In this document: piece by piece, positions 7,688 to 52,086 of the stretch | How the letters are laid out: every line of letters starts with the position of its first letter | How positions within the stretch are numbered: position 1 is the stretch's first letter | Assembly: GCA_029941315.1 (NCBI GenBank) | Contig: JAPYQE010000007.1 | Span: forward strand, 1 to 61,232 | Reading direction: 5' to 3' | Length of the DNA stretch: 61,232 bases | DNA from: Candidatus Latescibacterota bacterium | Lineage (GTDB): Bacteria; Latescibacterota; UBA2968; UBA8231 | Notes under the pieces: generated by a model | Told to the model about the DNA's origin: nothing | Database searches by the model: none | What the model saw: only the letters and a program-made list of their open reading frames with translations | Made by a program: the position numbers and the translations under genes

Positions 7688-7791
7688 TTTCTCATCTCCT
7701 TGGGTTTCATTGTTAAGAGATGGCCATCTCTCTTACATACGCCACATTAGACAAACGATCGTTTCCATCCATTTCCATTTTTAAAAAAAAA

Positions 7792-8190: not shown

Positions 8191-8198
8191 CGCCCGCC

Positions 8199-17019: not shown

Positions 17020-18894
17020 TCAGTGCACCACATTGACCACGCCTGTGCGGCATTCGGTCTCATTGTCGGCGGCGACCTGCACCTGATAGAGATATAGCCC
17101 CGGCCCGACCAAAGCGCCATAGTCGTCGCGCCCATCCCAGACTCGGGCAAAGCGCCCGCTCCGATCCTCACCGGCATATCCGCGGCGCACCAAGCGCCCG
17201 CCAAGGTCGTAGATCTCAAAGAACACAGGGGCCGGCTGCGTCAGTTTGAGCAGGCTATAGGCGACCTCGAACACGTCGTTTACTCCGTCGCCATTGGGCG
17301 TAAGCACCTGCCTCGCCGGCACCACATCGTTAAGTAAAGGCGCGTTCGGCGCAGAAAGGCGCACTGTCAGCCCCGAACTCGGCAGCTGCAGGTCCACATC
17401 CGCTTCCTGCGCATATTGGAATACCGTATCGGACTCGGCAGCTTCCGCCGTCGAACGCCGCTCCGCCGTGCGCACTTCAAAACGAGTGCCATCGACAAAG
17501 ACCTTAGCGCGAAAAAATACCTGCAAAAAGCTACCATCGGCAATCACCCGCTTCCACAAATTCACCTCGAAACCGCGCCCAGATTCCACCCGCACGGTAT
17601 GCAACACCAGTTCGTCGTCAACTTTGACGCTGTCGACACCGGCGACCTCGGCCAAGGTCAGCACTTCGACGAAGCGGTAACCAGTGTCCGAACGACCTTC
17701 GAGGCGGCGGGTCTGCATGCTCATCGCAAATTCTGTCTCGGCGCCCGCGTCAACGACATTCGGACTGATCTCGGCGCGCATCTGCCCCGAAGACGGTGGC
17801 GAGAAATATTCAAAAACCAGCTGTTCGAGCTTGACGCCGGGTTGCAGAAAACGCACCTGGAACTGCAAATAGCTGTTCGGGCTCGGCGAGCGCACCACGT
17901 TGCCGTCAACCGTCTCCCAACCACTCCAGTTGGGATTCGATTTGACCGGCCCCTGTGCGATGCCCGGAAAATCGTCGGCGTATTCCCATACCGCCCGGTT
18001 GACCTGTAACTCCTGCGGTCCTTGCGTGATAAAATAAATCAACGGATCCTCGTCAGGGCCGGTACGAGTCTGCAGCACGATCGGTAACTCTTCGATCGGC
18101 AAACCGCCCTCGTGGCGGACCCGCCCCCATACCGGCGTGCCGGTCCCAGCCAAAAGCGGCACAGAGCGATAGAAACCAGGCGGCGCGGTACCGTCGGTAT
18201 AGAGTTCCAGTTCCGCCAATTCCCAAGGCGCGTCGCCTATGGGTTGGAAACGCACGTAGCGAGCCTGGCGTTCACCGCTCACCTGCAGCACCCCCGGCCA
18301 TTCGACCACCGCACGAATATTGGGTCGGGTGATACCGAAAAATAGATAGCGCCGAAAGGAAACGTCGTTGGTGGTCAACAACCGCATCAGCGTCACCACC
18401 GGGCGCAGGCGGTCGCCCAAACCCAAATCGAAAGTCTGCGGAAAAGAGCCCACGTGTTCGGCGTCGAGCCGCGGCGAGAGTCGTGTGCGTTCGATACTAT
18501 AGGCCCCGCCGAGATCGATATAGATCGACGTCTGACGATCTAGCCCAAAGTCATCCGGATTAAAGGCCGTCGACAGGTCGCCGTCGCCGATAAACTTCAC
18601 CGCGGTGACTTCGTCGAGGAACACCGGCGTAAGTATCGCCTCGCCGAAGGGGTTGAAGCTTGGCTGTTGAGCCGAAAGCAGAATACTTCCGCCGCGCCCC
18701 GTGACATTCGCCATCAAGTTCTCCCTCGGCTCCACCCGCCAGGTCCAGACCGAGTCAGGCGACGAAATAACAAAGGCCAGCGAGTCCTGCACATCGATCC
18801 AGGAGAGCGCGTCGCGGCCCACCTTGAGTTCCAGTTGCGCCGCGGCCGGTGCGGTGCATAGCGCAAAAGCCAATAGGCAGAGGTGAATCCGCAT
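17020..18894 (-). CDS. A3: secreted protein with a discoidin-like motif and a C-terminal TPNGDGVND (T9SS type-B / FlgD-Ig-like) domain; function unknown
   Basis: Signal peptide MRIHLCLLAFALCTAPAAAQ. GDGDLSTAFNP..SIYIDLGGAYSIERTRLSPR. C-terminus LTPNGDGVNDVFEV..IYDLGGRLV..WDGRDDYGALVGPGLYLY. Paralog of A1 and A2. Confidence 0.85.
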   Translation of the reverse strand: MRIHLCLLAFALCTAPAAAQLELKVGRDALSWIDVQDSLAFVISSPDSVWTWRVEPRENLMANVTGRGGSILLSAQQPSFNPFGEAILTPVFLDEVTAVKFIGDGDLSTAFNPDDFGLDRQTSIYIDLGGAYSIERTRLSPRLDAEHVGSFPQTFDLGLGDRLRPVVTLMRLLTTNDVSFRRYLFFGITRPNIRAVVEWPGVLQVSGERQARYVRFQPIGDAPWELAELELYTDGTAPPGFYRSVPLLAGTGTPVWGRVRHEGGLPIEELPIVLQTRTGPDEDPLIYFITQGPQELQVNRAVWEYADDFPGIAQGPVKSNPNWSGWETVDGNVVRSPSPNSYLQFQVRFLQPGVKLEQLVFEYFSPPSSGQMRAEISPNVVDAGAETEFAMSMQTRRLEGRSDTGYRFVEVLTLAEVAGVDSVKVDDELVLHTVRVESGRGFEVNLWKRVIADGSFLQVFFRAKVFVDGTRFEVRTAERRSTAEAAESDTVFQYAQEADVDLQLPSSGLTVRLSAPNAPLLNDVVPARQVLTPNGDGVNDVFEVAYSLLKLTQPAPVFFEIYDLGGRLVRRGYAGEDRSGRFARVWDGRDDYGALVGPGLYLYQVQVAADNETECRTGVVNVVH

Positions 18895-20438
18895 CAGAAG
18901 GTGACCCTCGGAATGTTGCCCTTCGCTATTTCTTCGATCAACGCGAGACTATCCTCGCTGAGCGGGTTATTGCGCAGATCGACCGAGAGCAGCTTTTCTA
19001 GCGTCATAAGCACCGAAATATCCGCCACTTCGTTGCCGCGCAAACGCAGACGCCGCAACTCGGGCAGAGCCGCTAAGGGCAAGAGGTCTACCACGAAATT
19101 ATTCTCGAAAAACAAGGACCCCAGCAAAGCCTTACCGGCGAGTGGGCCGATATCGACAACCAGGTTCGCATTGAAGTCCAGGTTTTCTAGATTGCGTAGA
19201 CCCTGCAAGGGCGCGATATCCACGACCGAGTTTTGCGCGAACTCCAACCATTCCAACGCGCGCAAGCTCGACAGGGGCGAGAGATCGACGACCCGATTAA
19301 ATGAGAGGTGCAACATCGTGAGTCGGCGCAAACTGCGCAGTGGCGAAAGGTCATCGATCCAGTTGCTTTCCAGATAGAGTTTCTCCAGCCGACCTAGGCC
19401 TCGCAACGGCGAGATATCCTGGATCACATTGGATTCGAGGCGCAATTCGATCAGGTTCGTCAGACCGGCCAGCGACGAGACATCCACTATATCGTTGTTG
19501 TTAAGATTGAGTTTCTGTAGACTCGTCAGGCTCGCCAAGGAGGTGATATTTTCAAGACTTGCCGTCGTCAGGTCCAATGTATGCAGCTTCTGCAGACTCG
19601 CTAGCGGCAAGAGGCTTTGCAACTCGCCTTCGCGGGTCGAGCCGTTGAAGCGCAGCACTTCCAGATTAACCAACTGCTCGATGCCGTCCAGCGATTTTAC
19701 GGAGCTGTTCAGGCTCATGCTGGTGATCCCGCGCAGGTCCAAGACCGTCAAATTTTCGGTCCGCTTACGCGCCACCGAGCGCACTGAGCGTTCCAACTGC
19801 GCGTCCTGAAAAGTGATTGTCGGCTGGAAGAAGGTCACCAGCAATACCCGCTCGCGCAGCGTCTCCACCTGGTCCAAATCGAGCGGGTTGCCCGAAAGCT
19901 CGACGCTTTGCAAGCGCCTGAGTCGCAATAGCACCGCGATATCGCGAACTTGGTTATCGTCAAGGTTGAGCAGACTCAACAGCGTCAACCGCGCCAGTGG
20001 CTGCAAATCCGCGACCTGATTGCCGTCGAGGTTGAGCGAGTTCAACAACAATAAGTCCGCCAGCGGCGCGATATCCTCGACCGCGTTATTCGACAGATCG
20101 AGCACCTGCAGCCGCCGCAAACCCTCAAGCGGCGCGATATCCCCCACCGCGTTATCCCCCAATAACAGCATTTCCAAGCCGCGCAGTTGTTCGACCCCCT
20201 GCACATCCACAATATCATAACCGCCCGCGTCAAGCTTCTGTAACCCGGCCAACGCCGCCGCCGTCAATGCCCCCTCAGGCTGCGCCAACGCCTGCCGAAC
20301 TGCCCGCTCAAAACCCGCATCGGCAAAAGTATCGTGGGCAAAGACCACTTCGTTATCTGTGCCGACCGACTGTAGCGGCGGGCGTTCGTCGCCGCAGCCC
20401 AAACACCACAGCAATAGCAAGCACAGCAAATATTTCAT
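18894..20438 (-). CDS. leucine-rich-repeat (internalin-like 22-residue LRR) lipoprotein
   Basis: Lipobox LLLWCLGCG. Two blocks of LxxLxxLxLxxNxIxDIxPL repeats (for example LQVLDLSNNAVEDIAPLADL and LEKLYLESNWIDDLSPLRSL). Stop/start overlaps on both sides. Confidence 0.88.
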   Translation of the reverse strand: MKYLLCLLLLWCLGCGDERPPLQSVGTDNEVVFAHDTFADAGFERAVRQALAQPEGALTAAALAGLQKLDAGGYDIVDVQGVEQLRGLEMLLLGDNAVGDIAPLEGLRRLQVLDLSNNAVEDIAPLADLLLLNSLNLDGNQVADLQPLARLTLLSLLNLDDNQVRDIAVLLRLRRLQSVELSGNPLDLDQVETLRERVLLVTFFQPTITFQDAQLERSVRSVARKRTENLTVLDLRGITSMSLNSSVKSLDGIEQLVNLEVLRFNGSTREGELQSLLPLASLQKLHTLDLTTASLENITSLASLTSLQKLNLNNNDIVDVSSLAGLTNLIELRLESNVIQDISPLRGLGRLEKLYLESNWIDDLSPLRSLRRLTMLHLSFNRVVDLSPLSSLRALEWLEFAQNSVVDIAPLQGLRNLENLDFNANLVVDIGPLAGKALLGSLFFENNFVVDLLPLAALPELRRLRLRGNEVADISVLMTLEKLLSVDLRNNPLSEDSLALIEEIAKGNIPRVTF

Positions 20439-23161
20439 TGCTCGACCCCTGCGTAGACCGTGAGGAACCCCCGCGTCCGAGTGCGCGTTCCTTCGACTTC
20501 CTGATACCGCCGCGTAATGTCAAAGCCCAATACCGTCGTTAGTTTATAACCCTGGTAATCGGATATATTGGTCAGCTGGGCGACCGTCGTCGTCTCCCAA
20601 AAGCTGTCCTCCCCACCCGGCGGCGGCGGGTCGCGCAATTGGCGAAAATCGTGGTATTCGACCCCGGCTTCGAGATAACTACTGAGCATCACGGGAAAGC
20701 GCGCAACAACCAACAGAATCTGGCTAAGTTCTTTGCGTTCGGGCTGATTGAGTAATACCGGCGCCTCGCGGCGGAACTCGCTCTTCCACGCCGGGCTCAA
20801 ACTCAGCTTGCCCAACTGCAAGCGATACTCGGCCTTGTTAATCATGCCGAGAAAAGACCCCTCCTCGCGCTGGCCACGCAATTGTAATTCAATAAGATCG
20901 TCGCGCTGGTGGTAGAGCTGCCACTTGAGCATGTTGTTGAACTTGAACCCGGGCCAGCGGTCGAAGTCGAAACCCAGCCATGTCGTATTGAGCAACGTGT
21001 TCTGCGCCGGCAAGATATCTGGGGTCGGCACCAATTCGCCCTGCGAGTTGGGCCGTTGCGTCCACTGCACCAGATGGTCGAAGATATCGTCCTCAACGCT
21101 GCGCAGATCCTGGAAGACACGCGCCCGGCCCCAACCGGTAAAATAATGATCCCCCGCCACCATTAGATAATCGGCGTGCGCGCTGCGGCTGTCCGCACGC
21201 TGATCCATCCTCTGACGACCCGCCGCGACCCGCAGATCGGGGTGCAAAAAGACGCCGGCGTAAAGATTGTATCCCTTGCGATCGCGCTTGTAAGGATAGT
21301 CGGCCTCTTCGTCGTTTTCGAAACGGTCGATCCATCCATTGTGGTTCTGGTCGATGCCATAGAGGAACTCGGGCCGGTCGGTGTAATAGCGCAGAAAGGG
21401 CTCTTCGTAATCGGGCACTCGGTTGGGGCTTGAGTTGGTATCGTTTTGGTTGAAGTCGGAGATCAGGTCGTTGTTCTCGTCCCAGCCGGGGAAAATCGCG
21501 CGGTCCCTTGGCGAGCCTTGCCGAGCCCAGTCGGGGAAGCGGTCCTGGTCGTCGTTGTCGTCGACGAACTCGTAAAAACGCAACGGGCTGCCGTAGTCGA
21601 CAATGCCGTTGCGGTCGACTACTTGGAAACCAGTCTGGTAGTTGGGATCAAAATCAAAAGCTTCCAGCAGCGTGAAATAGGGGTAGTCGGTCTTCGACAC
21701 GTTCAGCATCCAGGCCTGCGACTCCTCGCTGGCCACATGGTGCTTTTCCAGGTTGGGGTTGGGATACTGTTTGTATTGCTGGTTAATGTCGACTTCGAGA
21801 TAGGCGTTAAACCCTTCAAGATCGCTCACCTCCACCGTGAAACCAGCGATCTGGTTGGCGGTGGGCAAACCATAATCGAGCGCCAATACGCGCTGATTCG
21901 ACGAATCCTTGACATTGCCCGGCGCCCTGGCCACCGGCACCGGCACGACCCGTTCCTGAAAATCGGTCTGCCGATCCGAGGCCATCTCAACTAGGTAGTC
22001 GTTGGCCACTACCAACTCAACTTGCACCCGCTCTATTTCGCTGGGGTCCGGCCCCGTATAGGAACGGTCCTGGAAATCATAGCGCAGATGGATCTCCTCG
22101 CGACCGTCCGCTGCCAAAAAACCGCGGCGCTGAAAACCGCCTTCAACCAGCGGCCGAAAACCGATCTCCGAGCCGCGTATACGCTTGCCTTCTAGGTCCC
22201 AGATTACAATATCCTGCGCGAAGAGTGCACCGCCGGCCTCGCCGTCTTCAGGGCTATCGTCCTTGATCACGACTTCGACGAAGCTGACATTGGTCAGATT
22301 CTGTATGCCGGTGAGATTGCCCTTGAGGATATTGCCATTAAAGAGCTCGGTTTGCGTTTGCGCGTGGTGGGCGTTGAGATAGGTGCCGCCGACCTTGACG
22401 AAGTCGCCAACCTGCACTTCTAAACGACTACCCACCAAACTCGTATTATTCGTCTTCTCCGAAGTTCCTGTCGAAGAGCCCGTCTCATCGACAAGGCCGT
22501 TGAGCCTGGACAACAATACCGTCAGCGCGTATTTATCGGCGAGAAAATCCCACTGGATGCCGTTGAAACGCGGCTTGGAAAAAGTCATCGGCGTCAGCGT
22601 CGTACGGATCTGACTGCCGATGGTGATCGCGTAATGATACTGGCCTTTGTGGTCGGAAGTGATGACCAATTGGTTAAACCACCCGGCAAAGCGCCCGTTC
22701 TGGGCCAGCGTCGAACCGAAGGGCTGCGGATTCTGTTGCCGCCAGTCGAAGATCAGCCAGCCGCGCGTCAGGTAGTTGCCGTATACATCATATATATAGC
22801 TGCCTTCGAGCGAGGTCGAGACATAGCGCTGGTAGAAGTTGCGCGCATAATTAGAGTACTCCCATTGTTTCCACTGGTATTCGGAGTAGAGCTCCTGCGG
22901 GATATACCACTTGCGCACCGCCGGGTCCAACGCGTCGAAGAGCACGCCGGGGCCACGCGGCTCAAAAGATACCTTGCCACCGCGTTTGACGGTACCTAAC
23001 CGGGAGCCATAGTCCTGAGCAGCGAGGAGTCCGGGTTGCAGGAGCAGATATAGGTTTAGCAGTAATAGGGTCGTGAGGAATGAAATATTCCGGATTATCC
23101 AGCCTCTGCTCTGCTCAAGGCCATGTTGTTTTATTTCGCTCAAAGCATACCTAAATCTCAA
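20435..23161 (-). CDS. B2: 908-aa secreted protein of unrecognised family (outer-membrane beta-barrel-like by inference)
   Basis: Hydrophobic signal segment ISFLTTLLLLNLYLLLQPGLLAAQ. Clear paralog of B1 (for example PDYEEPFLRYYTDRPEFLYGIDQNHNGWIDRFENDEEADYPYKRD). Beta-strand-like alternating pattern in the C-terminal third. Confidence 0.85.
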   Translation of the reverse strand: MRFRYALSEIKQHGLEQSRGWIIRNISFLTTLLLLNLYLLLQPGLLAAQDYGSRLGTVKRGGKVSFEPRGPGVLFDALDPAVRKWYIPQELYSEYQWKQWEYSNYARNFYQRYVSTSLEGSYIYDVYGNYLTRGWLIFDWRQQNPQPFGSTLAQNGRFAGWFNQLVITSDHKGQYHYAITIGSQIRTTLTPMTFSKPRFNGIQWDFLADKYALTVLLSRLNGLVDETGSSTGTSEKTNNTSLVGSRLEVQVGDFVKVGGTYLNAHHAQTQTELFNGNILKGNLTGIQNLTNVSFVEVVIKDDSPEDGEAGGALFAQDIVIWDLEGKRIRGSEIGFRPLVEGGFQRRGFLAADGREEIHLRYDFQDRSYTGPDPSEIERVQVELVVANDYLVEMASDRQTDFQERVVPVPVARAPGNVKDSSNQRVLALDYGLPTANQIAGFTVEVSDLEGFNAYLEVDINQQYKQYPNPNLEKHHVASEESQAWMLNVSKTDYPYFTLLEAFDFDPNYQTGFQVVDRNGIVDYGSPLRFYEFVDDNDDQDRFPDWARQGSPRDRAIFPGWDENNDLISDFNQNDTNSSPNRVPDYEEPFLRYYTDRPEFLYGIDQNHNGWIDRFENDEEADYPYKRDRKGYNLYAGVFLHPDLRVAAGRQRMDQRADSRSAHADYLMVAGDHYFTGWGRARVFQDLRSVEDDIFDHLVQWTQRPNSQGELVPTPDILPAQNTLLNTTWLGFDFDRWPGFKFNNMLKWQLYHQRDDLIELQLRGQREEGSFLGMINKAEYRLQLGKLSLSPAWKSEFRREAPVLLNQPERKELSQILLVVARFPVMLSSYLEAGVEYHDFRQLRDPPPPGGEDSFWETTTVAQLTNISDYQGYKLTTVLGFDITRRYQEVEGTRTRTRGFLTVYAGVEQ

Positions 23162-23219: not shown

Positions 23220-25115
23220 CTAGTACGCCACCGCCACCGTACCCGTATGCACCTCCTCAAACGCGTTCGCCTGCACCCGCAACACCCAAAAATAACTCCC
23301 CGGCAACACCATCTCGCCGCCCTCCAGCCGCCCATTCCACAACACCTCGACCGGCCCGATCCCCCGCTCCTCAGCCAATACCACGTGTACCAACCGGCCC
23401 GCCAGGTCGAAAAGCTCTAAACGCACCGGCGCCGACCGCGTCAGCTGTAATACGTTGAAGAACAGATCGAATGCGTCATTCACCCCATCGCCATTCGGCG
23501 TAAACACCGACGACTTGACCACAATCTCGCCGACCAGCTTGCCGATCTGCGGCTTGGGTATAGCTACCGATAAGTTCGACAACTCGGCAAAATCTCCGGG
23601 ACCGAAGTCGGTCGCCTCACCCGGTTCTAAACGCTGCGGTACCGCACCCGAACCACTGTGATAGGCCCGTCCCGAAAATGTCGTGCCGAAGCGGAAAATC
23701 GGCAGATCAAAAGTCAATTCAAGCACCGCCTCGTCGTGCCGGACTAGGGGGAAACTGATACCGAAGCCGTCGTCATGAATAAAGTCGACCGAGAAATCGA
23801 TCGGCTCCGCGTCGAGCACCACTTCCCGCACAGCCGAGATCGGCACGTTGGTGTCGATCTCAAGACGGTCGAAACCTCGAATCTCGCCCTCAGATCGCAG
23901 ACGCACCGCGTAGCGGAAAGTCGCCGCATCCTCTGCCTTGGCCAGCCGCGGAAAAACCTCGGCGCGCAGCGAATCGGCGATCGGCGGCTGCAAATAATCG
24001 AAGCGCAACTCGTCTACTTGCCGCGCCTCGAAGAGCCCACCTTCAAATTCGAAGCGAAACTGTATATAGCGGCGTGGCGTCGGCGCCCGTACCAACTCGT
24101 CCGAGTGCACTACGAACCACGGGCTCCAATAAATCGTATCATCGCGTACGCCGCCACGCTCGCCCGGCAACAGCGCATCGGTATAGCGCTCGCGCGAGAC
24201 TTCCACAATCTCGAAAAGCCCCTCACCGAGCGAAATCTTCTCCAAATAAACCAGCGGCGTCGGATCACTTCCGGTCCTGACCCTGACTTCCAATTGCGAA
24301 AAGTCCGGATGGCCGACGAGATCCTCGACCCAGTCGACAAAACCGATTGTGGCCCGGTCGCCGAGATCAATGGTATTAGATAAATACAGGCTCTCTTGCA
24401 GAAAACCAGTACCGTATACCTCGATCTCGTCGATCTCGAAGGGCACGTCGGCCAGCGACTTGATCTTGACGAAGCGCGCGTACTGGACCGGCACCTCCAC
24501 ATCGACCACCGGCTCCTCATTTTGTACATTGCGCTGGATCAATACATCGGGCTGACCGGATGCGAATTCGTTCAGCCACAGCTCGTAACCGCGCAAAAAA
24601 TCGTTATGAAAAGGGGTCGAGGGCATTTCTACTACCGTATTGCGCGGATAGAATAGCACTCTTTGCACACCTACTGGTACCATGAAATCGAGAATGACCC
24701 AAATACCGCGCGTCGCGACCCGCGGCTCGAAAACCGTCGGCTTGCGCTCGAAGGCCACCTCGTGGTCGCCGTTGACCGTGCCCTCGAGTTGCAATTCGTG
24801 GCCGCGCCCAGCATTCGGCGCCTTGATCGAACCAAAATCGAGGACCCGCGCAGCGATATTCTCACCTTCGTCAAAACGCAGCGGCCCGATCCACCCCGGC
24901 CGACCAGCAAAGTCAATGGTTACCCCCGGCGTATTCGTCAGCTCGACCTGGCCCAATGTCGAGTTGAGCACGATCTCCGGTTTGCCGCCGTCACCGCCGG
25001 CTTGCCAGGAAGAGGTGCCCCGGTCGCCGAGCACATAGGTCTCGGCCGGTTGCGCATACAACCCCGTCGCCCACAGCAATATCGCGGCCCACAGCCTATA
25101 TCTCATTGGCCTCAT
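23220..25115 (-). CDS. A2: secreted protein with a discoidin-like motif and a C-terminal TPNGDGVND domain; function unknown
   Basis: Start moved to ATG at 25115 (ATGA overlap with the B1 stop). Signal peptide MRPMRYRLWAAILLWATGLYAQ. VNGDHEVAFE..IWVILDFMVPVGVQRVLFYPR. C-terminus FTPNGDGVNDAFDL..LFDLAGRLV..WNGRLEGGEMVLPGSYFW. Confidence 0.85.
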   Translation of the reverse strand: MRPMRYRLWAAILLWATGLYAQPAETYVLGDRGTSSWQAGGDGGKPEIVLNSTLGQVELTNTPGVTIDFAGRPGWIGPLRFDEGENIAARVLDFGSIKAPNAGRGHELQLEGTVNGDHEVAFERKPTVFEPRVATRGIWVILDFMVPVGVQRVLFYPRNTVVEMPSTPFHNDFLRGYELWLNEFASGQPDVLIQRNVQNEEPVVDVEVPVQYARFVKIKSLADVPFEIDEIEVYGTGFLQESLYLSNTIDLGDRATIGFVDWVEDLVGHPDFSQLEVRVRTGSDPTPLVYLEKISLGEGLFEIVEVSRERYTDALLPGERGGVRDDTIYWSPWFVVHSDELVRAPTPRRYIQFRFEFEGGLFEARQVDELRFDYLQPPIADSLRAEVFPRLAKAEDAATFRYAVRLRSEGEIRGFDRLEIDTNVPISAVREVVLDAEPIDFSVDFIHDDGFGISFPLVRHDEAVLELTFDLPIFRFGTTFSGRAYHSGSGAVPQRLEPGEATDFGPGDFAELSNLSVAIPKPQIGKLVGEIVVKSSVFTPNGDGVNDAFDLFFNVLQLTRSAPVRLELFDLAGRLVHVVLAEERGIGPVEVLWNGRLEGGEMVLPGSYFWVLRVQANAFEEVHTGTVAVAY

Positions 25116-27856
25116 TGGCTCAATCCCGCGTAAAGCGTCATAAAAACCAAACTCGACTCCTGTGCAGGGCGCCCTTCGAAACGTCGCTGTTGGAACTGCA
25201 CGCCGGTCGTCGTCACCAACTGATACCCCTGGTAGGCCGTGCGGTTGAGCAATTGCGCGACAGCCGTCCAATTAAAAAAATCGGCATCTACCTCTTCCCG
25301 CATCCCGTCTAAGAGCCAGAGCTTGCCCGCCTCGACGCCCACCTGCAGTTCGGTATTGAAAAGCTGACGGCCATAACGCGGATAATAGCTGACACCCACC
25401 GATTCGGCGAAGAGCGGTTGCGTCCACATTAAAAAGAAAATCTCTTCCACGCTGGTAGACGCCGGCAGGCGCGTGCTGAAAGGCCGTTCCTTGCGAAATT
25501 CGCTTTTGAAGCGCGGCTCCAATACGCCCAACCCCACCGGAATGCTCCACTCCGCTTTATTAATCACACCGAGAAAACCGCTCAATTTGCGCCCTTCCCG
25601 CAACGACACCTCATCCTCCGGATCCTGTTGTTCTACGATATCCCATTTGACCCGGTGCAATAACCGCACCTGCGCCCCCAACTGTTGGTCCAGATCAATA
25701 TACAGCGCGTTTTTCCAGGCGTTCAGCCCCGGCAGAAAATCGACCCGATCGAGCATGCGGCCCGGCCCGCCGATGGGCTGAAACCACTGGCGTAGGTCGT
25801 CGGGAATATTGTCGCGGACCCGACCGCCAAAATCGAAAATCCTCAACCGGCTGCCGCCCTTAAAACGATGGCTCCAAGCCCCCAAACCATACCAGAACCG
25901 GGTCTCGCCGTCGCCGACCACCAATCGCATATTCTGGCGCCCTACGCTCAACTCGAGGTCGGGCAATACCTCGACCTTGAGATAGGCGTTATAACCGCGG
26001 TGATCGCGTTTGTAGGGATAGTCCGGCTCAAGGTCGTTTTCGAAACGGTCTATAATGTCATTGTGGTTCATATCGAGGCCGAAGAGGAACTCGGGCCGAT
26101 CCGAGCGATAGCGCAGGAAGGGCTCTTCGTAATCGGGGAAGACATTCTGGTTCTGGTTATTGTCGTTGATAAAGTCGCCGTTTTCGTCCAAGCCCGGCCA
26201 GGCGACCTCGCGCTGACTCGAAAGGATGCTCGCCGATGACACCGTCGCCGACTCGGTAATCCCGCCCCAGCGTACGAAAAATGGCCGTTCCCATTCGGTC
26301 AACCCGTTGAGGTCGTCGTCGTCATCGACAAATTCGTAGACCTGGGGTATCTGGCTCTTAAATTTGATCCGGCCCGTACGGTCGGTGAGCCAGTAGCGGG
26401 TGCTGTAGTCGTCCTCGATTGAAAAACCCTCGCCGAAGAACATCCAGGGACCGAAGCGATAGGAACCATTGAGATAACCGGCGTGCGCGTTTTCGGCGAT
26501 CTCGTGGTGCACTGAAATATTGGGGTTGGGATAGCGCGAATAGCGACGATTAAGCACCAATTCGCCCATTAGCGAAAGCCCTTTCCAATCGCTCAAATTC
26601 CAATCAACGCCGTACAGTTCGCTGGCCGTCGGCAAACCATAATCAAGTCGTAGAACCTGCGTGTTGCTATTGTCCTGCACATTGCCCGCGGCCCGCGCGA
26701 CCGGCAAAAAAACAACCTCGGCATTACGCCGTTGGCCGTCGGTCTGCAAATCCGTCGCTATTTCAACCCTGTAATCATTGGCCAGCGACAGCTCGACCTG
26801 CACGCTCTGCAAATCTTCCGTCTGCACATCCTCAAAGTCGAGGCTGCCTAGATCAAATTCCAATAGGATACTTTCTTCGTCACGAGCAAATAGCCGCCCG
26901 CCTTGCAATACCCCACCCTCGCGCAAGGGCAAAAAGTCGATGTCGCGCCCCCGCAATTGGCGGCCACTGGTATCCGTCATCACGATATCAAAACCCGCCA
27001 GCGCCGCCCCCACCCCACCACGGCCCGGCGAATCGTCCCTGATCCGGACCCACAACTTGTCCAATGGCTGGTTCTCCAACGAAGTCAAAATGCCGCGCAG
27101 CGGGTTACCTTCGCCGAACTCGACTTGGGTTAGCACATTGTGCGCGTTGACATAGGTCAGCCCGAAGCTTGCTCCCGGCCCCGCCTGAAATTCGAGGTGG
27201 CTACCCATGACCGTTGTCGAATTGGTTTGCGCCTCGGCGTCGGGGTTACTCGGTCGCGACAAGAGCAGACTGGCCTGATACTGCTCGGCCGCGTAATCCA
27301 GGCGCACGCCATTGAAGCGCGGCTTATTGAAGGTCAGCGGGGTAAAACGGGTGAAGATCTCGTCGCCGATCATCAGCCGGTACGAGGCCCCGCCGCGCTG
27401 GTCCGAAGCGATGACCAGACGGTTAAAAAAATCGCGGTAGGCCGGACGCTGATTCGCCATCAGGTCCATCGAAGAAAGACCACCGCCGCGCTTGTCGATA
27501 AAGCTGCCCCTGGAGCCGACCTGCTCCTGGCTCCAGTTGTAAACCAACCAGCCCCGGCCCAAAGACTTGCCAAAGTTGTCAAAGCTCTCGTCGCCTTCGA
27601 GGATCAGACTGATATAACGCCGATAGGAGTCGCGGGCGAAATTGCTGCCGCGCGCGTACCAGGGCGACATATAGGTCTCAGGCTGATAGCGCGGCTCGTA
27701 CCATTTGTGTATCGCCGGCGAGACATAGGACATCTCGAAGCTCTCGGTATGCGCACCGCGCTGCGCGACGCCCCAGTGCAACGGATCAGATACTTGCGCG
27801 CCGGCCAGAGCCACCCACAACAGGCATAAACTTATGATCGTCGTATGGCGCATCAA
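25112..27856 (-). CDS. B1: 914-aa secreted protein of unrecognised family (outer-membrane beta-barrel-like by inference)
   Basis: Signal peptide MMRHTTIISLCLLWVALAGAQ. Paralog of B2 along its full length. Asp/Asn-rich block GLDENGDFINDNNQNQN..DMNHNDIIDRFENDLEPDYPYKRD. ATGA overlaps at both ends. Confidence 0.85.
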   Translation of the reverse strand: MMRHTTIISLCLLWVALAGAQVSDPLHWGVAQRGAHTESFEMSYVSPAIHKWYEPRYQPETYMSPWYARGSNFARDSYRRYISLILEGDESFDNFGKSLGRGWLVYNWSQEQVGSRGSFIDKRGGGLSSMDLMANQRPAYRDFFNRLVIASDQRGGASYRLMIGDEIFTRFTPLTFNKPRFNGVRLDYAAEQYQASLLLSRPSNPDAEAQTNSTTVMGSHLEFQAGPGASFGLTYVNAHNVLTQVEFGEGNPLRGILTSLENQPLDKLWVRIRDDSPGRGGVGAALAGFDIVMTDTSGRQLRGRDIDFLPLREGGVLQGGRLFARDEESILLEFDLGSLDFEDVQTEDLQSVQVELSLANDYRVEIATDLQTDGQRRNAEVVFLPVARAAGNVQDNSNTQVLRLDYGLPTASELYGVDWNLSDWKGLSLMGELVLNRRYSRYPNPNISVHHEIAENAHAGYLNGSYRFGPWMFFGEGFSIEDDYSTRYWLTDRTGRIKFKSQIPQVYEFVDDDDDLNGLTEWERPFFVRWGGITESATVSSASILSSQREVAWPGLDENGDFINDNNQNQNVFPDYEEPFLRYRSDRPEFLFGLDMNHNDIIDRFENDLEPDYPYKRDHRGYNAYLKVEVLPDLELSVGRQNMRLVVGDGETRFWYGLGAWSHRFKGGSRLRIFDFGGRVRDNIPDDLRQWFQPIGGPGRMLDRVDFLPGLNAWKNALYIDLDQQLGAQVRLLHRVKWDIVEQQDPEDEVSLREGRKLSGFLGVINKAEWSIPVGLGVLEPRFKSEFRKERPFSTRLPASTSVEEIFFLMWTQPLFAESVGVSYYPRYGRQLFNTELQVGVEAGKLWLLDGMREEVDADFFNWTAVAQLLNRTAYQGYQLVTTTGVQFQQRRFEGRPAQESSLVFMTLYAGLSQ

Positions 27857-30378
27857 TAGACCACGTGCACCAGTCTGGAAGCGTAGACTCCAGCCACATC
27901 ACTATCGGCAGCGAAACCAACGCGCGCCATGTAAATGCCCGGCGGCACAATCTCGCCGACCTCGTCGCGCCCGTCCCATGCGACTCGACGCTCGCCACTA
28001 GGGTGCGCGGCATCGATCGACAAATCGCGCAACTGCCGCCCCGCCAGATCGTAAATTTCCACCCGCAGTTGCTTCTCGCCTTCAAGGTGAAAAATCGACA
28101 AGGTTATGTCCGTAATATCATTGACGCCATCGCCATTGGGTGTAAACGCGCGCGGCACCACCTGCACATTTTCCAATAGCCGCGTCCGCTCCAGGTCCGA
28201 CACTACTACCAGCGACTGACTCGATACCAGGGCGCTGGCATCACCATCGCTGACCACCTGCACTCGTCCCGGCCTGCTCGCCCGTTCCAACTCGGCGGTA
28301 AAGGTCGTGCTCTGTAAAAATACCTTGGTGCGGAATTTGATCTCGTAGATCGGATTGCCACGCAGCACCGGTGCGGGAAAAAACAGTTCGACCTCGCCCT
28401 CCGCCCCCGGTTCCAATAGTAATTCGCCCGGCCACAAATCCTGGCCAGAGCCGATGCGCAACGCCGTATCCCCACCCGATCGCACCGAGAGCAACTCAAT
28501 CGGCGCCGCCGAAGAAGAGCGCAGGCGCAAACGGTCGAAGCCCGGATTGCCCGCCGCGAATTCGGGCTGCAAATAAAGCGTAAAGTCCTGCTCAACCCCC
28601 GGTTCGATCTGCCATACCGGCCAAATCTCGCCGACCACCTTGTCGACCAAAGGCGGCTCGAAACGCAAGCGTAGATCGCGGATCTTGGCCGCCCTGAGCG
28701 GCTCGCGCGACAAAAGCCGCACCTGTACTTGCACAAAGGCGCGTGGACTCGGCGATTTGAAGGCGAGGCCCGAGGCCTCGTAGACCTCACTCCAACTGCT
28801 CCAATGCGGGCCAGCAACTTTTTCGATCACGACAGCCGGACGCCTATTTTCTGGGAGCAGGTCCCACAGGCTCTTGGCGATCTCACGACCGGTCACCGCA
28901 AAATAATGCGGTATCTCGATAATCTCTTCGCCGCTGCGGGTGCGAACCTCGACCTGGGTGCCTGGCGGCTCTTCCCCCTCCCACTCCACCACGGAAAACA
29001 ACCGCGGTCTATCCAGCGGGATAAAGGGCGAGGTCATTTCCACCTCGGAGACAAAACCCTCGCCATAGGCCTGGATCTCGCTGATAAAACCGTCGACCGA
29101 TTCGTTGGGATTAAATTCGAGGTGGCGCATTTCGATAAAGCGCACTTCCTGCAGCGGAAAGGTCTCTTCGAGATGCTGGTGGCCGCTGAGGTTGCGTTTT
29201 TCGTCGAAACTGTTCCAGATCCGTTCCCCATTAGGACTCAACGCCCCATTCGAAACCCGCAACTGATAAGCCAGCGGCGGCATCTCATTGGCCGGCGCGA
29301 GCAGTTTGATGCGGTCGAGCCAGTATTTGGCGCCCAAGTCGATCTTCAGTTGCCGCTCGTCGGTCACCGGATCGTAGATCGGCACGTCAAAGCTCGAAGA
29401 ATAGAGTCCGTCGGAAAAAATCTTGCGGAAGAGAAATTCAAAACCGCCTTCGTCGGCTCCGCGTTCGACCTCGCTCTGGGTCAGCTTCACCACATTCTGG
29501 CCAAGAGCAAAAACCTCGACCTCGGCCAAGCGGGGACGCTCGTGACGATAATAGCGCACCGGTCCGTGCTCGTCCTCCGGCAAGTCGAAATAATCACGCT
29601 CGGAAATAAGGATCTCGCGCCCGCCCACCGTCACACGAAAATAATCGACGGCGCCCCGGTCGTCTTCGGCCAAGATCTCATAGGTCTCGGCATTCACTTC
29701 CTGCGCTCTGGGCCCGTCGGTATCGAGCACGTCGAGCCGCAAAAACTGAATAATCTCGCCTTCGATGCCGTCGGTGACCTGGCGGTTGGGTTTGATGTCG
29801 AAAATATATTCGCGTTGGTTTTTATTGGGTTTGGTCTCCAAACCAATGCGAAAGAAGCGCCGGCGCTGATCGCGCCCCTGCCCGAAACGCAGCCCATCCG
29901 AGGCCATCAAACGAAACTTCAAAAAGGGATCGCCCTGTCCCTCATCGACAAAGCGCAGCACTACTCTGCGGGCGATTACCGCCCGCCCCAAATCAATCTC
30001 CAGAAACCACTGGTCCACCGGCGAGCTACGCAAAGGCTCCCAATAGGTGCTGGGATTGCGATCCAAAATAGCCGCCGCCTGGTCCCGGCTGGTGCCTACC
30101 TCACTAATACCGCCCTGCAGAGTGTCTTGCGACACGAAGGGGTTTACGTAGATAAAGTCGACCGCGTTTTGCGCCACCTCGATATCGCTGCGCAGAAAAC
30201 GCGGTTCGACGGTGCCGTCTTCGCGTACGATCTGCACCCCGGTGGGCGCATCCCAGGCCTGCCAGTGCACCGGTTCGTTGATGCGCACTTGGTTAAAAAG
30301 TAGGCGGTAGCCTTCGCTTTCCTGGGCGAAAAGCGGATGGGCCAGAAAGAACAGTAGAATAGGTAGTATTATGCGCAC
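27853..30378 (-). CDS. A1: 841-aa secreted protein with discoidin-like motifs and a C-terminal TPNGDGVND domain; function unknown
   Basis: GTG start. Signal peptide MRIILPILLFFLAHPLFAQ. LDRNPSTYWEP..WFLEIDLGRAVIARRVVLRF and KIDLGAKYWLDRIKLLAP. C-terminus FTPNGDGVNDITDI..IYDLAGRQL..WDGRDEVGEIVPPGIYM. Confidence 0.85.
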   Translation of the reverse strand: MRIILPILLFFLAHPLFAQESEGYRLLFNQVRINEPVHWQAWDAPTGVQIVREDGTVEPRFLRSDIEVAQNAVDFIYVNPFVSQDTLQGGISEVGTSRDQAAAILDRNPSTYWEPLRSSPVDQWFLEIDLGRAVIARRVVLRFVDEGQGDPFLKFRLMASDGLRFGQGRDQRRRFFRIGLETKPNKNQREYIFDIKPNRQVTDGIEGEIIQFLRLDVLDTDGPRAQEVNAETYEILAEDDRGAVDYFRVTVGGREILISERDYFDLPEDEHGPVRYYRHERPRLAEVEVFALGQNVVKLTQSEVERGADEGGFEFLFRKIFSDGLYSSSFDVPIYDPVTDERQLKIDLGAKYWLDRIKLLAPANEMPPLAYQLRVSNGALSPNGERIWNSFDEKRNLSGHQHLEETFPLQEVRFIEMRHLEFNPNESVDGFISEIQAYGEGFVSEVEMTSPFIPLDRPRLFSVVEWEGEEPPGTQVEVRTRSGEEIIEIPHYFAVTGREIAKSLWDLLPENRRPAVVIEKVAGPHWSSWSEVYEASGLAFKSPSPRAFVQVQVRLLSREPLRAAKIRDLRLRFEPPLVDKVVGEIWPVWQIEPGVEQDFTLYLQPEFAAGNPGFDRLRLRSSSAAPIELLSVRSGGDTALRIGSGQDLWPGELLLEPGAEGEVELFFPAPVLRGNPIYEIKFRTKVFLQSTTFTAELERASRPGRVQVVSDGDASALVSSQSLVVVSDLERTRLLENVQVVPRAFTPNGDGVNDITDITLSIFHLEGEKQLRVEIYDLAGRQLRDLSIDAAHPSGERRVAWDGRDEVGEIVPPGIYMARVGFAADSDVAGVYASRLVHVVY

Positions 30379-30674: not shown

Positions 30675-31883
30675 TCATCTGGTCGTTTCTTCCCGCAAGA
30701 TATCGAGATAGCGCTCACCATAACCCTCGTATTCTAGTCCCTCGCTATACGCTCCGTCGCGACCATCGAGGCTCGTTGGCGCCGCCTCGACCACCGGTTC
30801 GATCTGGGTGTCCTCGTGCCACTCGTTCCACGAAGTAACCAGCAGCATATGTCCGGTAGCCGGTTCCGTGTAGGACGCCGCCTGCTGCAACATAGCGCGA
30901 AAGAGGCTGCCGGGTTCACTCGTCTTGGTCAGCTTGCGAGACACCGCCGGGTGCCCATCGCGCACACCTTTGTCGTTGAAACCCGGTGTGGCGGCGGGAA
31001 CAAACGCCGCACCCGCTGCATTCGCCAACTTCTGCCATTTGCTCTGCGCCGCATAATAAGCATCAACTTTCTGCTGCCCGGCGTAGCCCTGCGCGCCCAT
31101 ACTACCATATACATCGTAATTCGTCACGCCGTCGAGCAGTCCGAGGGCGGACGAATTTGTCGGTTGTCCGAATACCTGGTCGCCGACGATATAAATGTCG
31201 TGGCCCGCATCCGTTGCCGCATTGCGCATTCGCGCTACCACCTCGTCGAGCACACCATTGCGCGACAGCACGCGCGTTAGATAGACAAATAACACGGGGC
31301 GACCGTCGATGCGCAGATAGTTTGCATGATCGAAATAATTGGCCGCCATATGGGCGATATCCGCGGAGACATTGGACATATCCTCGAACTCGGGAATACG
31401 CCCGGAGGTCTCGTAGAATAACGCCACTTGCATATCCCCCAGTTCCTCATGCGGCAAAATGCGCTGCAATAACGTAGTATCCTCGCGGCGACCCGGCCCC
31501 CACCAACTAGCGACCCACAGCGACACATTGGCGGCGCGACTCCACTGCAAATGCTGGGCGATGACCTCTGGGGCGCGGTCGTCATACTCGCCAAGGCTGG
31601 GTGGCTGCGGCGGTTGCAAATGCTCGCGCATATAGCGACCACCATGAAAATCACCTGCATACCACGGGTAATAATAAACGCCGACCGTATAGGCCGAGTC
31701 CAAAGCTGGGTCTTCGGAATCGATCATCTCCTGCCCTTTTGTAGAATTTGTCGTCCCTTGCCCTGTGCAGGCACTCGCCAAGGCAAGAAAAAAGCTACAG
31801 GCGCAAACGAGCAACAAGGCCCGTTGAGATGGGTCAGATATGCTATACTGAGACGTTTTTGCAAGCTTTGCCGAGTTGTTCAA
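30675..31883 (-). CDS. GH99-like glycoside hydrolase lipoprotein
   Basis: Lipobox FLALASAC. GVYYYPWY..LGEYDDRAPEVIAQHLQWSRAANVSLWVASWWGPG matches the GH99-type N-terminal pattern as I recall it. Not verified by search. Confidence 0.5.
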   Translation of the reverse strand: MNNSAKLAKTSQYSISDPSQRALLLVCACSFFLALASACTGQGTTNSTKGQEMIDSEDPALDSAYTVGVYYYPWYAGDFHGGRYMREHLQPPQPPSLGEYDDRAPEVIAQHLQWSRAANVSLWVASWWGPGRREDTTLLQRILPHEELGDMQVALFYETSGRIPEFEDMSNVSADIAHMAANYFDHANYLRIDGRPVLFVYLTRVLSRNGVLDEVVARMRNAATDAGHDIYIVGDQVFGQPTNSSALGLLDGVTNYDVYGSMGAQGYAGQQKVDAYYAAQSKWQKLANAAGAAFVPAATPGFNDKGVRDGHPAVSRKLTKTSEPGSLFRAMLQQAASYTEPATGHMLLVTSWNEWHEDTQIEPVVEAAPTSLDGRDGAYSEGLEYEGYGERYLDILREETTR

Positions 31884-31992
31884 TTTAGTCCTTTTAGTCC
31901 TTTATGGCGCTGTAGTAGCACTCTTTTTTTATGTTGAGACCAGTCTGGCCCAAAATGCAACACCTCATTTACCCTCTCAATAAAACTCGCTT

Positions 31993-34504: not shown

Positions 34505-34614
34505 ATGGTCTTTTTTATCATTCGGTTCCGACACTCCATAACAAAGCATATTTGATCAATCAAAATGCGCATACCTACGTGGCTAATGCGCACATGATCT
34601 GCGCGCTATTTTTC

Positions 34615-36366: not shown

Positions 36367-38475
36367 CTAATGCAATAACATCATCGGCCGCTGCAGCGTG
36401 CTGTAGTCGGTAGCCAACTCGTATATATAGGTACCCGCACTAGCCGGTTGATTCTCATGGTCCGTGCCGTCCCAGATTACCTCTCGCGCACCCGCCGCCT
36501 GCGACGCATCGACCAAGGTCTTGATATGCTGCCCTAAACTATTATATACCTTGAGCCGCACGTTCGTCGGTGCCGCCAGCGCATAACCGATCGTCGTCGA
36601 AGGGTTAAAGGGATTGGGGTAGTTTTGCTGTAGATTGAAACGGTCGGGCTGGTCTTGGGATGCTCTAATACTCGTAGCCGCAAGTTGTATGGTAATCGTC
36701 TTGGATCCAGGCGTTAAAACAAAGCTCGCAGTAAAAGTCTCACCGCCACTGCGCACCCTGGCCTCGTAGTCGCCGTAGAACCCCCGATCGCTGAATTGCC
36801 CGCTGGCATCGGTCTGCCCCTTTGCGCTCGTCCACCATTCCCGGAAAACCAGGTCCTTGTAAATCTGCGCATGCGGCCTCGGCGTCCAATCAGCCGTATA
36901 TAGCGCGGCGGCCGGCCGCCAATGCGCTTTCTCCCAAAAACCCCAGAATTGCAGACCAGTGACGGCGGGATGGCTGAAGATCGCCGTCATAAAATCGCGC
37001 GTATAATCGTTGAGTAACTCCTGGTCGGCGCTATTGATATCAAATTCGGTGATCTTGATATCGAGACCGAAACGTGCAAAGCGATCGAGCACGCTGAGCA
37101 CCTTAGACGGAGCCGTCACGCTCTCACCAAAATGGCCCTGCATGCCGATCCCCGTAATCGGTGCGCCCTGGTCCAGCAAATACTGAATCGTCTTTTCATA
37201 GTGGTTTTGGTGCGCAATATCCTGGCCGCCATTGCTGAGGATGCTAAAGTCATTGATAAAAAGCGGTGCCGTCGGTAAGTTGCGGCGCGCCGCGGCAAAC
37301 CAATCGACCATCACCTCCTCGCCGCTCAGATCCATCACATCGTGGTTATGATAGGGCTCATTGATTACATCCCACTCCTGTACCAGATCGCGCATCTGTT
37401 GGGTTATTTCATCGATATGCGCGATAATCAGCGGTGGGATAAGTGTCGCCGCATCAGAATTCCCCTCTAAATCCTTGAGACTTTGTGGCAAATTGGACCA
37501 ACCGGGCCAGACGAGCACATGGCCGCGCCGGTGTAAACCATGGGCCTTGAGCCATTCGAAACCGGACAGCGCCTTTTCGCGACTGAAGTTGCTGCCCCAA
37601 TCACCGTCCCAGGGCGGCCACTTCAGCGCGTTCTCGTTAGAAGCGGCGTTGAAGAGCTCTTTGACCTTCTCGCGATATACCACATCTTCGGCCGCAGCGC
37701 TGCTAAGGCGCCGAATCTGTAACGCAGAGCCAAAGAGAAAGGCGTGGCGCCGCATCTCGACTTCGACTTCTGCGTTGGCCAAGGGCTGCCCGTTCGGGCC
37801 GAGTATGGCTAAAGTGAAATCGCCTTGGCGGTGTTGCCGAATACGATCCGCAGCCGCACTGCGCCATGTCGCGTCAGGCTCGCGACCGGCATAGGTCGGT
37901 TTTACTGCCGGCAAGTCGTCGACCTGCAATTGCGTCCCGTAATGCAGCACCGCAAAACCGGCAAGCTCAATGGTCTGGCGTCGGCTGCCAACGCCAAAGT
38001 TGATCGCGGCCTGCCCGGTGGCGTAGTCGTCGATAAATTCAAAGGGGAAAAAGAACTCGCGCCATTCGGCCCCAACACTAACCCCGCGATGCAGCGACTT
38101 GTCCCAATCCGGTGCGCCCTTCTGCGCGTACACCGTAAAAAAAACCTCGCCGGTCTCATCGCTCGATTCGGTTCCGCGGGCCCAGAAATGGATCAGCGCG
38201 ACATCGCCCCTCGCCACGGGTGCAATCGTGGTGTTGCCGATTTCGACGCTCCAGGTATCCCCGGCCTCATGCAGGATCTCGACGCGCAGCGCCCGGTTGA
38301 AATCCGCGTGTTCGACATCGACGATCTGGCTGCGAGCCTCGCTGCCAGAAATTGGCCTGCGGGCGGTCGTAAGAAAATCATCCGGCGTCAACGGCGTACC
38401 CCCGGCGGGGATTTGTGCTTGTGCGGTATGCAAAGTACACAAAATGAAAACGGCAGGGGCTATATATTTTATCAC
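36367..38475 (-). CDS. GH10 endo-beta-1,4-xylanase with an N-terminal CBM-like domain and a T9SS type-A C-terminal sorting domain
   Basis: NENALKW, GHVLVWPGW, WDVINEP (acid/base Glu) and ITEFDI (nucleophile Glu). C-terminus LQQNYPNPFNPSTTIGY..VYNSLGQHIKTL..WDGTD..AGTYIY. Start placed at GTG 38475 (MIKYIAPAVFILCTLHTAQAQ signal peptide); this choice is uncertain. Confidence 0.88.
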   Translation of the reverse strand: MIKYIAPAVFILCTLHTAQAQIPAGGTPLTPDDFLTTARRPISGSEARSQIVDVEHADFNRALRVEILHEAGDTWSVEIGNTTIAPVARGDVALIHFWARGTESSDETGEVFFTVYAQKGAPDWDKSLHRGVSVGAEWREFFFPFEFIDDYATGQAAINFGVGSRRQTIELAGFAVLHYGTQLQVDDLPAVKPTYAGREPDATWRSAAADRIRQHRQGDFTLAILGPNGQPLANAEVEVEMRRHAFLFGSALQIRRLSSAAAEDVVYREKVKELFNAASNENALKWPPWDGDWGSNFSREKALSGFEWLKAHGLHRRGHVLVWPGWSNLPQSLKDLEGNSDAATLIPPLIIAHIDEITQQMRDLVQEWDVINEPYHNHDVMDLSGEEVMVDWFAAARRNLPTAPLFINDFSILSNGGQDIAHQNHYEKTIQYLLDQGAPITGIGMQGHFGESVTAPSKVLSVLDRFARFGLDIKITEFDINSADQELLNDYTRDFMTAIFSHPAVTGLQFWGFWEKAHWRPAAALYTADWTPRPHAQIYKDLVFREWWTSAKGQTDASGQFSDRGFYGDYEARVRSGGETFTASFVLTPGSKTITIQLAATSIRASQDQPDRFNLQQNYPNPFNPSTTIGYALAAPTNVRLKVYNSLGQHIKTLVDASQAAGAREVIWDGTDHENQPASAGTYIYELATDYSTLQRPMMLLH

Positions 38476-38482
38476 AGTGATA

Positions 38483-40693: not shown

Positions 40694-40890
40694 ATAAATA
40701 ATCCAATAAAAAGCGGCGGCCATCAGACCTTCGGCTCGCCGACATAGGCTAAAGAACTTCTAAAAATACACCTTCTTATTCCATTCTACCAGCTCGTCGT
40801 TTCTCTGGATAAAACTACGGCTTAAACATCCGACAAACCCGCTAGCCACCCTTGTTGCTTGCTCCACCCATCCCCCCGTTGCATCACCAA

Positions 40891-52068: not shown

Positions 52069-52086
52069 GTCCCACACGGAGCACCC

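Follow-up and report, generated by a model that had tools for sequence, protein, structure and literature searches.

How might a bacterium outside the Bacteroidota deliver proteins with sorting-type tails to its surface? The question is raised by a contig from Candidatus Latescibacterota bacterium (JAPYQE010000007.1, assembly GCA_029941315.1), of which positions 1 to 61,232, a stretch of 61,232 nucleotides referred to here as the window, were analysed. It holds six consecutive, tightly packed genes. Three encode A proteins (A1, A2 and A3) whose C-terminal domains (CTDs) resemble the type B sorting tails of the secretion system known as type IX (T9SS). Two encode large B proteins (B1 and B2) predicted to be outer-membrane β-barrels, and one encodes a leucine-rich repeat (LRR) protein. 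An earlier note, made from the DNA letters, had likened this arrangement to T9SS type B cargo with a dedicated outer-membrane partner. The reading we favor, at about even confidence, is that B is such a partner, receiving and holding A through its tail, most likely in a step downstream of a T9SS-like translocon.

T9SS cargo has a bipartite layout, with a Sec signal at one end and a C-terminal sorting domain at the other (PMC12618676). Type B cargo of Bacteroidota attaches to a PorP/SprF barrel of its own, whose gene usually lies directly downstream, and this barrel is required for secretion of the cargo and for its surface anchorage or targeting (PMC9143113, PMC12618676). How type B tails are recognized is still being resolved (PMC12618676).

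The A and B genes form one operon

The six genes all lie on the minus strand in the order A1-B1-A2-B2-LRR-A3, and they form one operon with overlapping stop and start codons. A1 (30378..27853, 841 aa in the open reading frame (ORF) list of the window) has a Sec signal followed by a β-sandwich chain that ends in the CTD. Its stop overlaps the start of B1 in the sequence TGATG. B1 (27856..25112, 914 aa) is predicted from its ORF and an AlphaFold2 model to be an outer-membrane β-barrel, and its stop overlaps the ATG of A2 at 25115 (ATGA). A2 (25115..23220, 631 aa) is an A1 paralog with a Sec signal and a CTD. B2, a B1 paralog, spans 23161..20435 and has about 880-908 aa, its exact start being uncertain (23161 or slightly later). 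It overlaps by 4 nt the gene for the LRR protein (20438..18894, 514 aa), which has internalin-like repeats (Pfam LRR_4, E 8e-48) and is a possible lipoprotein. A 1-nt overlap joins this gene to A3 (18894..17020, 624 aa), the third A paralog, again with a Sec signal and a CTD. Each A gene had been said to be followed by a B gene. This holds for A1 and A2 but fails for A3, which comes after the LRR gene and has no B gene behind it.

A1, A2, A3, B1 and B2 all carry a Sec-type signal peptide without a lipobox, as read from the sequence. Therefore, any arrival or retention of the A proteins at the surface would take a route other than lipidation. By eye, a glutamine directly follows the AxA-like cleavage site in six of six signal-peptidase-I-type proteins, namely these five and a glycoside hydrolase family 10 (GH10) protein of the window. 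With a slash for the cut, the sites read FA/QESE, YA/QPAE, AAA/QLEL, AGA/QVSD, LAA/QDYG and AQA/Q; the minus-strand N-termini concerned are at 30378, 25115, 18894, 27856, 23161 and 38622. The pattern resembles the 'Q-rule', which has been described as Bacteroidetes-specific and not common to the whole Fibrobacteres-Chlorobi-Bacteroidetes (FCB) group (PMC5837995).

The start of A2 differs from the mechanical one in the ORF list, a TTG at 25271 that would overlap B1 by about 160 nt. The ATG at 25115 is the likelier start because it overlaps the B1 stop and a normal signal peptide comes next. About 300 nt of non-coding sequence lie ahead of A1, and a scan of the operon for consensus promoters and terminators gave nothing above shuffled expectation. 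The coordinates and peptide strings in the earlier note were right, and all of its peptides are present; the genes, though, are on the minus strand, and plus-strand translation of the same ranges gives nonsense. A 524-aa plus-strand ORF (28729..30303) was rejected as a gene, being antisense within the well-supported A1. Since the minus-strand A1 has hundreds of homologs, this ORF almost certainly results from the composition of that gene.

The A proteins end in type-B-like tails

The three CTDs lie at 27853..28152 (A1), 23220..23513 (A2) and 17020..17310 (A3), all on the minus strand. Each is about 100 aa long. In A1, the motif TPNGDGVND is followed by a FlgD-Ig-like β-sandwich that runs to the end of the protein (...HVVY). 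The tails align with 36-40% identity and an invariant TPNGDGVND, as the earlier note had proposed for these three C-termini. A hidden Markov model (HMM) of the family was built from 217 tails of related proteins and run on a six-frame translation of the window. It recovered A1, A2 and A3 with E-values of 2e-31, 1e-31 and 9e-36, a range of 1e-31 to 1e-36, and found the full domain nowhere else in the window. On the GH10 protein, it matched the Ig body alone (model positions 26-85). By sequence comparison, homology of the three tails is far beyond chance.

To which class do these tails belong? The cutoffs are 27 bits (gathering threshold) for CHU_C (PF13585) and for FlgD_ig, 35 bits for the type B model TIGR04131 and 23 bits for the type A model TIGR04183. 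For CHU_C, A2 (35.3) and A3 (33.8) pass in the full protein, and A1 passes when its tail is scanned alone (31.2, against 25.9 in the full protein). FlgD_ig gives A1 25.4 in the full protein and 29.2 alone, A2 18.3 and A3 32.8. Scanned alone, the tails score 27.7, 28.8 and 21.8 bits with TIGR04131, which scores lower in the full-length A proteins. The type A cutoff is missed by all three tails, with 17.4 for A1 and 16.2 for A3, each alone, and no match for A2. As a type B positive control we used the C-terminus of a Cytophagales protein from Fulvitalea axinellae plasmid pFA2, which scores 64.3 with TIGR04131 and 13.3 with TIGR04183. The A tails align with this CTD across the whole domain, again with TPNGDGVND invariant. 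A plasmid search with the A2 tail found one Bacteroidota type B tail, the one used here as control, and no PorP gene adjoins it.

The same affinities appear in the wider family. Among 142 family tails, CHU_C matched 142, FlgD_ig 140, TIGR04131 132 (E<0.01), the CTD region of a PorU model 131 and TIGR04183 91. Against solved structures, a tail profile came nearest to FlgD Ig domains (E 3e-10) and to the PNGDG-bearing Fn3-like domains of C5a peptidases, next to the PorU CTD (E 3e-4), and then to the PorZ and gingipain CTDs. Like type A CTDs and FlgD Ig domains, then, the A-tail β-sandwich matches FlgD_ig and the PorU and PorZ CTDs, and TIGR04183 weakly. Unlike type A CTDs, the A tails have TPNGDGxND instead of NYPNPFN and score higher as type B than as type A. 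The tails also close with a strand of alternating hydrophobic residues whose last residue is Tyr or His (VHVVY, VAVAY, VNVVH), and the Tyr is at least 90% conserved in the 142 tails.

Position within the protein separates a sorting tail from an internal Ig domain, which the earlier note had named as the outcome that would speak against it. Of 227 tail hits in 86 related loci, 224 sit at the extreme C-terminus. This supports a C-terminal sorting-type domain. We classify the A tail, by sequence, as a diverged type-B-like member of the T9SS-CTD/FlgD-Ig superfamily. The earlier assignment to T9SS type B, CHU_C or FlgD-Ig thus stands in its CHU_C match and in the end-to-end alignment with a real type B CTD, and falls short at the curated type B model.

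The B proteins are predicted to be giant outer-membrane barrels

B1 and B2 are 38% identical from end to end. Neither has a Pfam or NCBIfam match at E<=0.1, PorP/SprF models included, and the 120 B homologs among the matches listed come with neither a precomputed Pfam domain nor a function name. Searches of PDB sequences with the B profile, with the B insert and with the B N-terminal region found no relatives. Assignment of B as PorP/SprF, SprA, LptD, an usher, Omp85 or a TonB-dependent transporter was rejected, as no Pfam or NCBIfam model matched. In particular, B1 and B2 differ from SusC and TonB-dependent transporters in having no Plug or receptor domain match in Pfam or NCBIfam, and from SprA/Sov in having no NCBIfam match. 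SprA/Sov proteins exceed 2000 aa.

The AlphaFold2 model of B1 (pTM 0.71) has about 26-28 long antiparallel strands that reach the C-terminus. Significant Foldseek matches are all outer-membrane barrels, namely SlpA, MtrB, LptD, the FimD usher and Occ porins, with TM-scores of 0.16-0.37. SlpA is the top match, and the top matches have a probability of about 1.0 despite these low TM-scores. SprA (8gl8_A, 2290 aa) comes merely 29th (TMt 0.11). We therefore predict from the model that B is a new family of giant outer-membrane barrels. Both sequences end without a terminal aromatic residue (YAGLSQ and YAGVEQ). Such a residue is typical of outer-membrane barrels.

Three regions of B1 stand out, all on the minus strand. 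Residues 22-145 (27422..27793) form a conserved W/Y-rich N-terminal region ahead of the barrel, modelled at low pLDDT with one helix. Many of its residues are invariant in 40 homologs, and it is presumed to be periplasmic. Residues 267-370 (26747..27058) form a β-sandwich that interrupts the barrel after roughly its sixth strand (pLDDT about 90; DSSP of the AlphaFold2 model). The plug of ushers sits in the β6-β7 loop (PMC4356140). The B1 insert would occupy a plug-like position, which is a lead from strand order. Finally, residues 513-613 (26018..26320) form an acidic loop, poorly modelled or disordered, with many invariant D and N residues. Its motifs, taken from invariant columns in the 40 homologs, are EFVDDDDD, PDYEEPFL and DMNHNxxIDRFEND. 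The loop probably binds calcium, one stretch being EF-hand-like by eye.

The cassette is conserved and multi-copy in Latescibacterota

A scan of species-representative genomes found 154 relatives, and a neighbourhood census covered 86 related loci (L001-L086). Nearly all of the best 80 loci of the 154 are metagenome-assembled genomes (MAGs) of Latescibacterota. The rest are mostly labelled Gemmatimonadota, and otherwise Handelsmanbacteria, Planctomycetota or uncultured bacterium. One 7.3-Mb chromosome (OZ244561.1) has at least eight separate loci among the best 80 of 154. The complete Latescibacterota chromosomes OZ220690.1 and OZ242361.1 also bear the cassette. The cassette is thus confined to Latescibacterota-type MAGs, conserved and multi-copy. 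In an exhaustive profile search, 914 of 1.84 billion representatives at the 50%-identity level belong to the B family, and not one of the 914 has been given a functional name. Near-identical cassettes also occur in MAGs labelled Gemmatimonadota, Planctomycetota, Handelsmanbacteria or 'uncultured bacterium' (L008, L012, L013, L033, L036), and public taxonomic labels for this lineage look inconsistent.

Gene order is kept along with gene content. The order A1-B1-A2-B2-(X)-A3 recurs on contigs whose B proteins are just about 50-55% identical. Every one of the 86 loci has several A-like genes and one or two B genes, and the tail is present on all 226 A-like proteins and on no B. A B gene comes directly after an A gene in 85 of 110 cases (77%), and 12 more B genes follow another B. 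Counted from the other side, 85 of 190 A genes (45%) are directly followed by B. The divergences of A and B are correlated (r = 0.70-0.82).

Other genes recur with the core. LRR genes account for 25 ORFs across the related loci. Recurrent accessory genes encode SurA-like double-peptidyl-prolyl isomerase (PPIase) proteins; tetratricopeptide repeat (TPR) proteins, including PMT_2 glycosyltransferase fusions and spermine-synthase-like/major facilitator superfamily fusions; a DUF6785/DUF6784 membrane protein; FG-GAP/ASPIC proteins; CBM9-like proteins of about 315 aa, in tandem; and small lipoproteins. Examples are at L060 12680-14959, L052 14925-18095, L065 1569-3533, L026 5853-7592 and L003 1378-5521; leaving the lipoproteins aside, the window has no such genes. 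Among the recurrent accessory genes tested, there was no carbohydrate-active enzyme (CAZyme) and no recognisable T9SS or PorP component. Around the A/B core, these genes of sister cassettes hint at functions in glycosylation and envelope assembly.

The A proteins share more than their tails

The earlier note had placed the likeness of the A proteins in their C-termini. The tails do align, but A1 to A3 are paralogous over a longer stretch of about 430 aa (E 6e-25 and 2e-27). In Pfam, A1 matches F5_F8_type_C (29.9 bits) in addition to CHU_C and FlgD_ig. An AlphaFold2 model of A1 from 40 homologs is confidently all-β (pLDDT 86.9). Foldseek matches it to tandem discoidin/CBM32 domains (neuropilin b1b2, with a TM-score up to 0.47, and the ZmpB CBM32 pair), to macroglobulin- and Ig-type domains and to PorU. 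On the model, the layout of A1 is one of tandem discoidin/CBM32-like modules, then Ig- or macroglobulin-like domains, then the CTD. The discoidin/CBM32-type modules suggest a binding role for A, for example in glycan binding or adhesion. A orthologs are 50-60% identical across the lineage, which is unusually conserved.

Type IX context and surroundings of the cassette

A second tail class is present in the window. The GH10 xylanase-type protein (36367..38622, minus, 751 aa) ends in an NYPNPFN tail, which passes TIGR04183 with 24.1 bits in the full protein and 28.9 alone. It scores 36.6 with FlgD_ig and has no match to CHU_C or TIGR04131. With this type A tail beside those of A1 to A3, two classes of tail are in use in the same genome. 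The GH10-type tail is also found on a WD40 protein in the locus of the closest relative. In MAGs of several FCB phyla, homologs of this tail, one of them 92% identical, go by the name "T9SS type A sorting domain-containing protein". By its sequence, the tail hints at a T9SS in the host. Neither the window nor any examined locus yielded a PorP homolog, and a search with the GH10 tail for a PorU-like sortase in the lineage returned short cargo tails only.

The literature bears on the same point. Latescibacteria have been described as members of the FCB superphylum (PMC4454575), and T9SS is thought to be present in FCB phyla beyond Bacteroidota (PMC11285876). A full-text literature search found no report of T9SS in Latescibacteria or Latescibacterota, and the 2015 Latescibacteria genome paper has no mention of it.

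Genes for polysaccharide degradation surround the cassette. A GH99-like gene lies directly upstream of A1, and GH92, a glycogen-debranching-type enzyme and three sulfatases are also present (30675-33423, 38483-40723, 48389-50347, 52039-53448 and 58810-60189). Two Old Yellow Enzyme-type oxidoreductases are encoded at 33497-35715. At 7043-9181 on the minus strand is an envelope-stress-like cluster of an extracytoplasmic function (ECF) sigma factor (8606-9181), a Metal_resist-domain protein (7792-8301) and a CpxP/Spy-like periplasmic protein (7043-7687).

Discussion

We propose that the operon builds a cell-surface complex. A1, A2 and A3, each with its signal peptide, would be exported by Sec to the periplasm. 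The CTD would then be the element that carries A across the outer membrane and keeps it there. B1 and B2 would receive A, most likely during or after its passage through a T9SS-like translocon, and hold it at the surface, doing the job of the small, unrelated PorP/SprF shuttles of Bacteroidota. The LRR protein is probably an accessory subunit. Each paralogous cassette of a genome would display a different A set.

The closest parallels are SprB-SprF of Flavobacterium johnsoniae and PG1035-PorP-PorE of Porphyromonas gingivalis. As in these systems, A has a Sec signal and a C-terminal (F)TPNGDGxND domain, and a gene for a predicted outer-membrane β-barrel lies immediately 3' of the cargo gene. 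Some A genes lack a partner gene and may rely on a shared one, as do T9SS orphan type B substrates (PMC12618676, PMC9143113). The differences are in the barrel and in the setting. PorP/SprF proteins have about 300-350 aa, whereas B has about 910 aa and some 26-28 predicted strands, bears a plug-like insert as well as an acidic loop, and is unrelated to them in sequence. The expectation that B differs from SprF is borne out in size, at 908-914 aa, and in sequence, with no match to a PorP/SprF model. In contrast to the type B systems of Bacteroidota, the host is a member of the Latescibacterota, the tails stay under the TIGR04131 cutoff, the cassettes combine two to four cargo genes with one or two barrels, and T9SS dependence is putative.

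Several findings weigh against B as a T9SS-linked partner. No T9SS core gene (gldKLMN, sprA/sov, porU or porV) is present in the 61-kb window or in the examined neighbours of related loci, and a 2025 paper still has T9SS exclusive to Bacteroidota (PMC12618676). The tails of A1 to A3 are all under the curated type B cutoff of 35. Type-A-like tails in FCB MAGs of these lineages also draw cross-hits from Pfam CHU_C, so a CHU_C match alone does not discriminate; TPNGDGxND and type B scores above type A scores do. The ratio of A to B is not 1:1, with 3:2, 3:1 and 2:1 the commonest. Accordingly, the proposal of cargo with a dedicated partner keeps its support from coupling, synteny and barrel fold, but strict pairing does not hold. 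In partial Mantel analysis, the correlation with B is 0.14 for the tail and 0.61 for the rest of A. With no tail-specific co-divergence, it is only by inference that the tail is the contact point. Finally, at about three times PorP/SprF size and with the plug-like insert and conserved N-terminal region, B looks over-built for a mere anchor.

That last point leads to the main rival reading, which we consider doubtful, that B is a dedicated plug-gated pore in the style of an usher or a two-partner transporter. Such a pore would export A and retain it by the Ig-like tail independently of T9SS, with the SurA-like chaperones of many sister cassettes delivering the substrates. The large barrel of about 26-28 strands would fit, as would fold matches that include barrels housing or passing a protein partner (MtrB, LptD and FimD). 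So would the architecture shared with the ushers PapC and FimD, a barrel interrupted after β6 by an Ig-like domain, here a well-modelled β-sandwich, with a conserved N-terminal domain ahead and with Ig-fold substrates. Every cassette has its own B, SurA-like double-PPIase genes recur, and T9SS and PorP genes are missing from every locus examined. On the other hand, B matches neither the Pfam Usher family nor TpsB/POTRA, and its TM-scores to ushers are low (0.2-0.36). It lacks sequence homology to ushers, the C-terminal usher domains and a PapD-type chaperone gene, and has another strand count; the A proteins, unlike pilins, are large multi-domain proteins. The cassette of the window has no chaperone gene. 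The A tail is itself homologous to T9SS signals, in a genome that also uses type A tails.

Two further explanations would take B out of protein export. One is a SusC/SusD-like uptake locus, where B imports glycans or other polymers, the A proteins bind glycans at the surface, and the tail serves just for T9SS export and attachment. The discoidin/CBM32-type modules, the many paralogous cassettes per genome, reminiscent of polysaccharide utilization loci, and the sulfatases and glycoside hydrolases in the window, with the GH99-like gene directly upstream, are consistent with it, as are a fused sigma-70 protein and TonB-dependent receptors near some cassettes. We nevertheless find uptake unlikely. 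B lacks a Plug or TonB-dependent receptor match, CAZyme adjacency is not kept in the homologous loci examined, and the genes that do recur are of envelope-biogenesis types (PPIase, TPR, PMT_2 fusions, DUF6785 and FG-GAP) rather than CAZymes. The unusual conservation of A orthologs across the lineage also argues against it. The other explanation has A and B as co-inherited envelope components with no cargo-partner relation, for example with B as a structural or S-layer-anchoring protein like Deinococcus SlpA and A as an independently secreted coat. SlpA is the top fold match of B, the co-divergence of A and B is explained equally well by the A body as by the tail, and the A:B ratio varies. SlpA, like the LptD-LptE and MtrB-MtrA barrels that enclose a protein partner, is of comparable size (26-30 strands) and among the best fold matches. 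Yet TM-scores to these proteins are merely 0.16-0.37, and B has no sequence similarity to them, no LptD/OstA domain, no SLH or other wall-binding domain and no cytochrome partner. Given also the overlapping stop and start codons, the near-universal order of A then B, and a tail that every A protein carries and that occurs nowhere else in the window, mere co-inheritance seems quite improbable.

A bolder possibility, tentative and on balance improbable, goes beyond the partner reading. B may belong to a new class of plug-gated outer-membrane translocon-anchors, in which the type-B-like Ig tail addresses the adjoining giant barrel. This would make the cassette a self-contained display pathway that works without the canonical T9SS, and in evolution it may be related to, or have preceded, the type IX CTD/shuttle step.

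We return to B as the proposed outer-membrane partner of A and to what the cassette means. At the least, the analysis defines two unannotated, lineage-specific protein families and their cassette, whose members are currently labelled "hypothetical" or "FlgD Ig-like domain containing protein". Nearly all that has been worked out on type IX secretion and its sorting tails comes from Bacteroidota; here, a type-B-like tail occurs in a sister phylum with an unrelated, larger barrel. If B is the partner, unrelated barrels can handle tail recognition, which bears on the evolution of the CTD/shuttle step. The many cassettes per Latescibacterota genome suggest an undescribed route of surface display. 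With B as the partner, the cassette would also offer a handle on the surface biology of abundant uncultured polysaccharide degraders of marine and sediment habitats.

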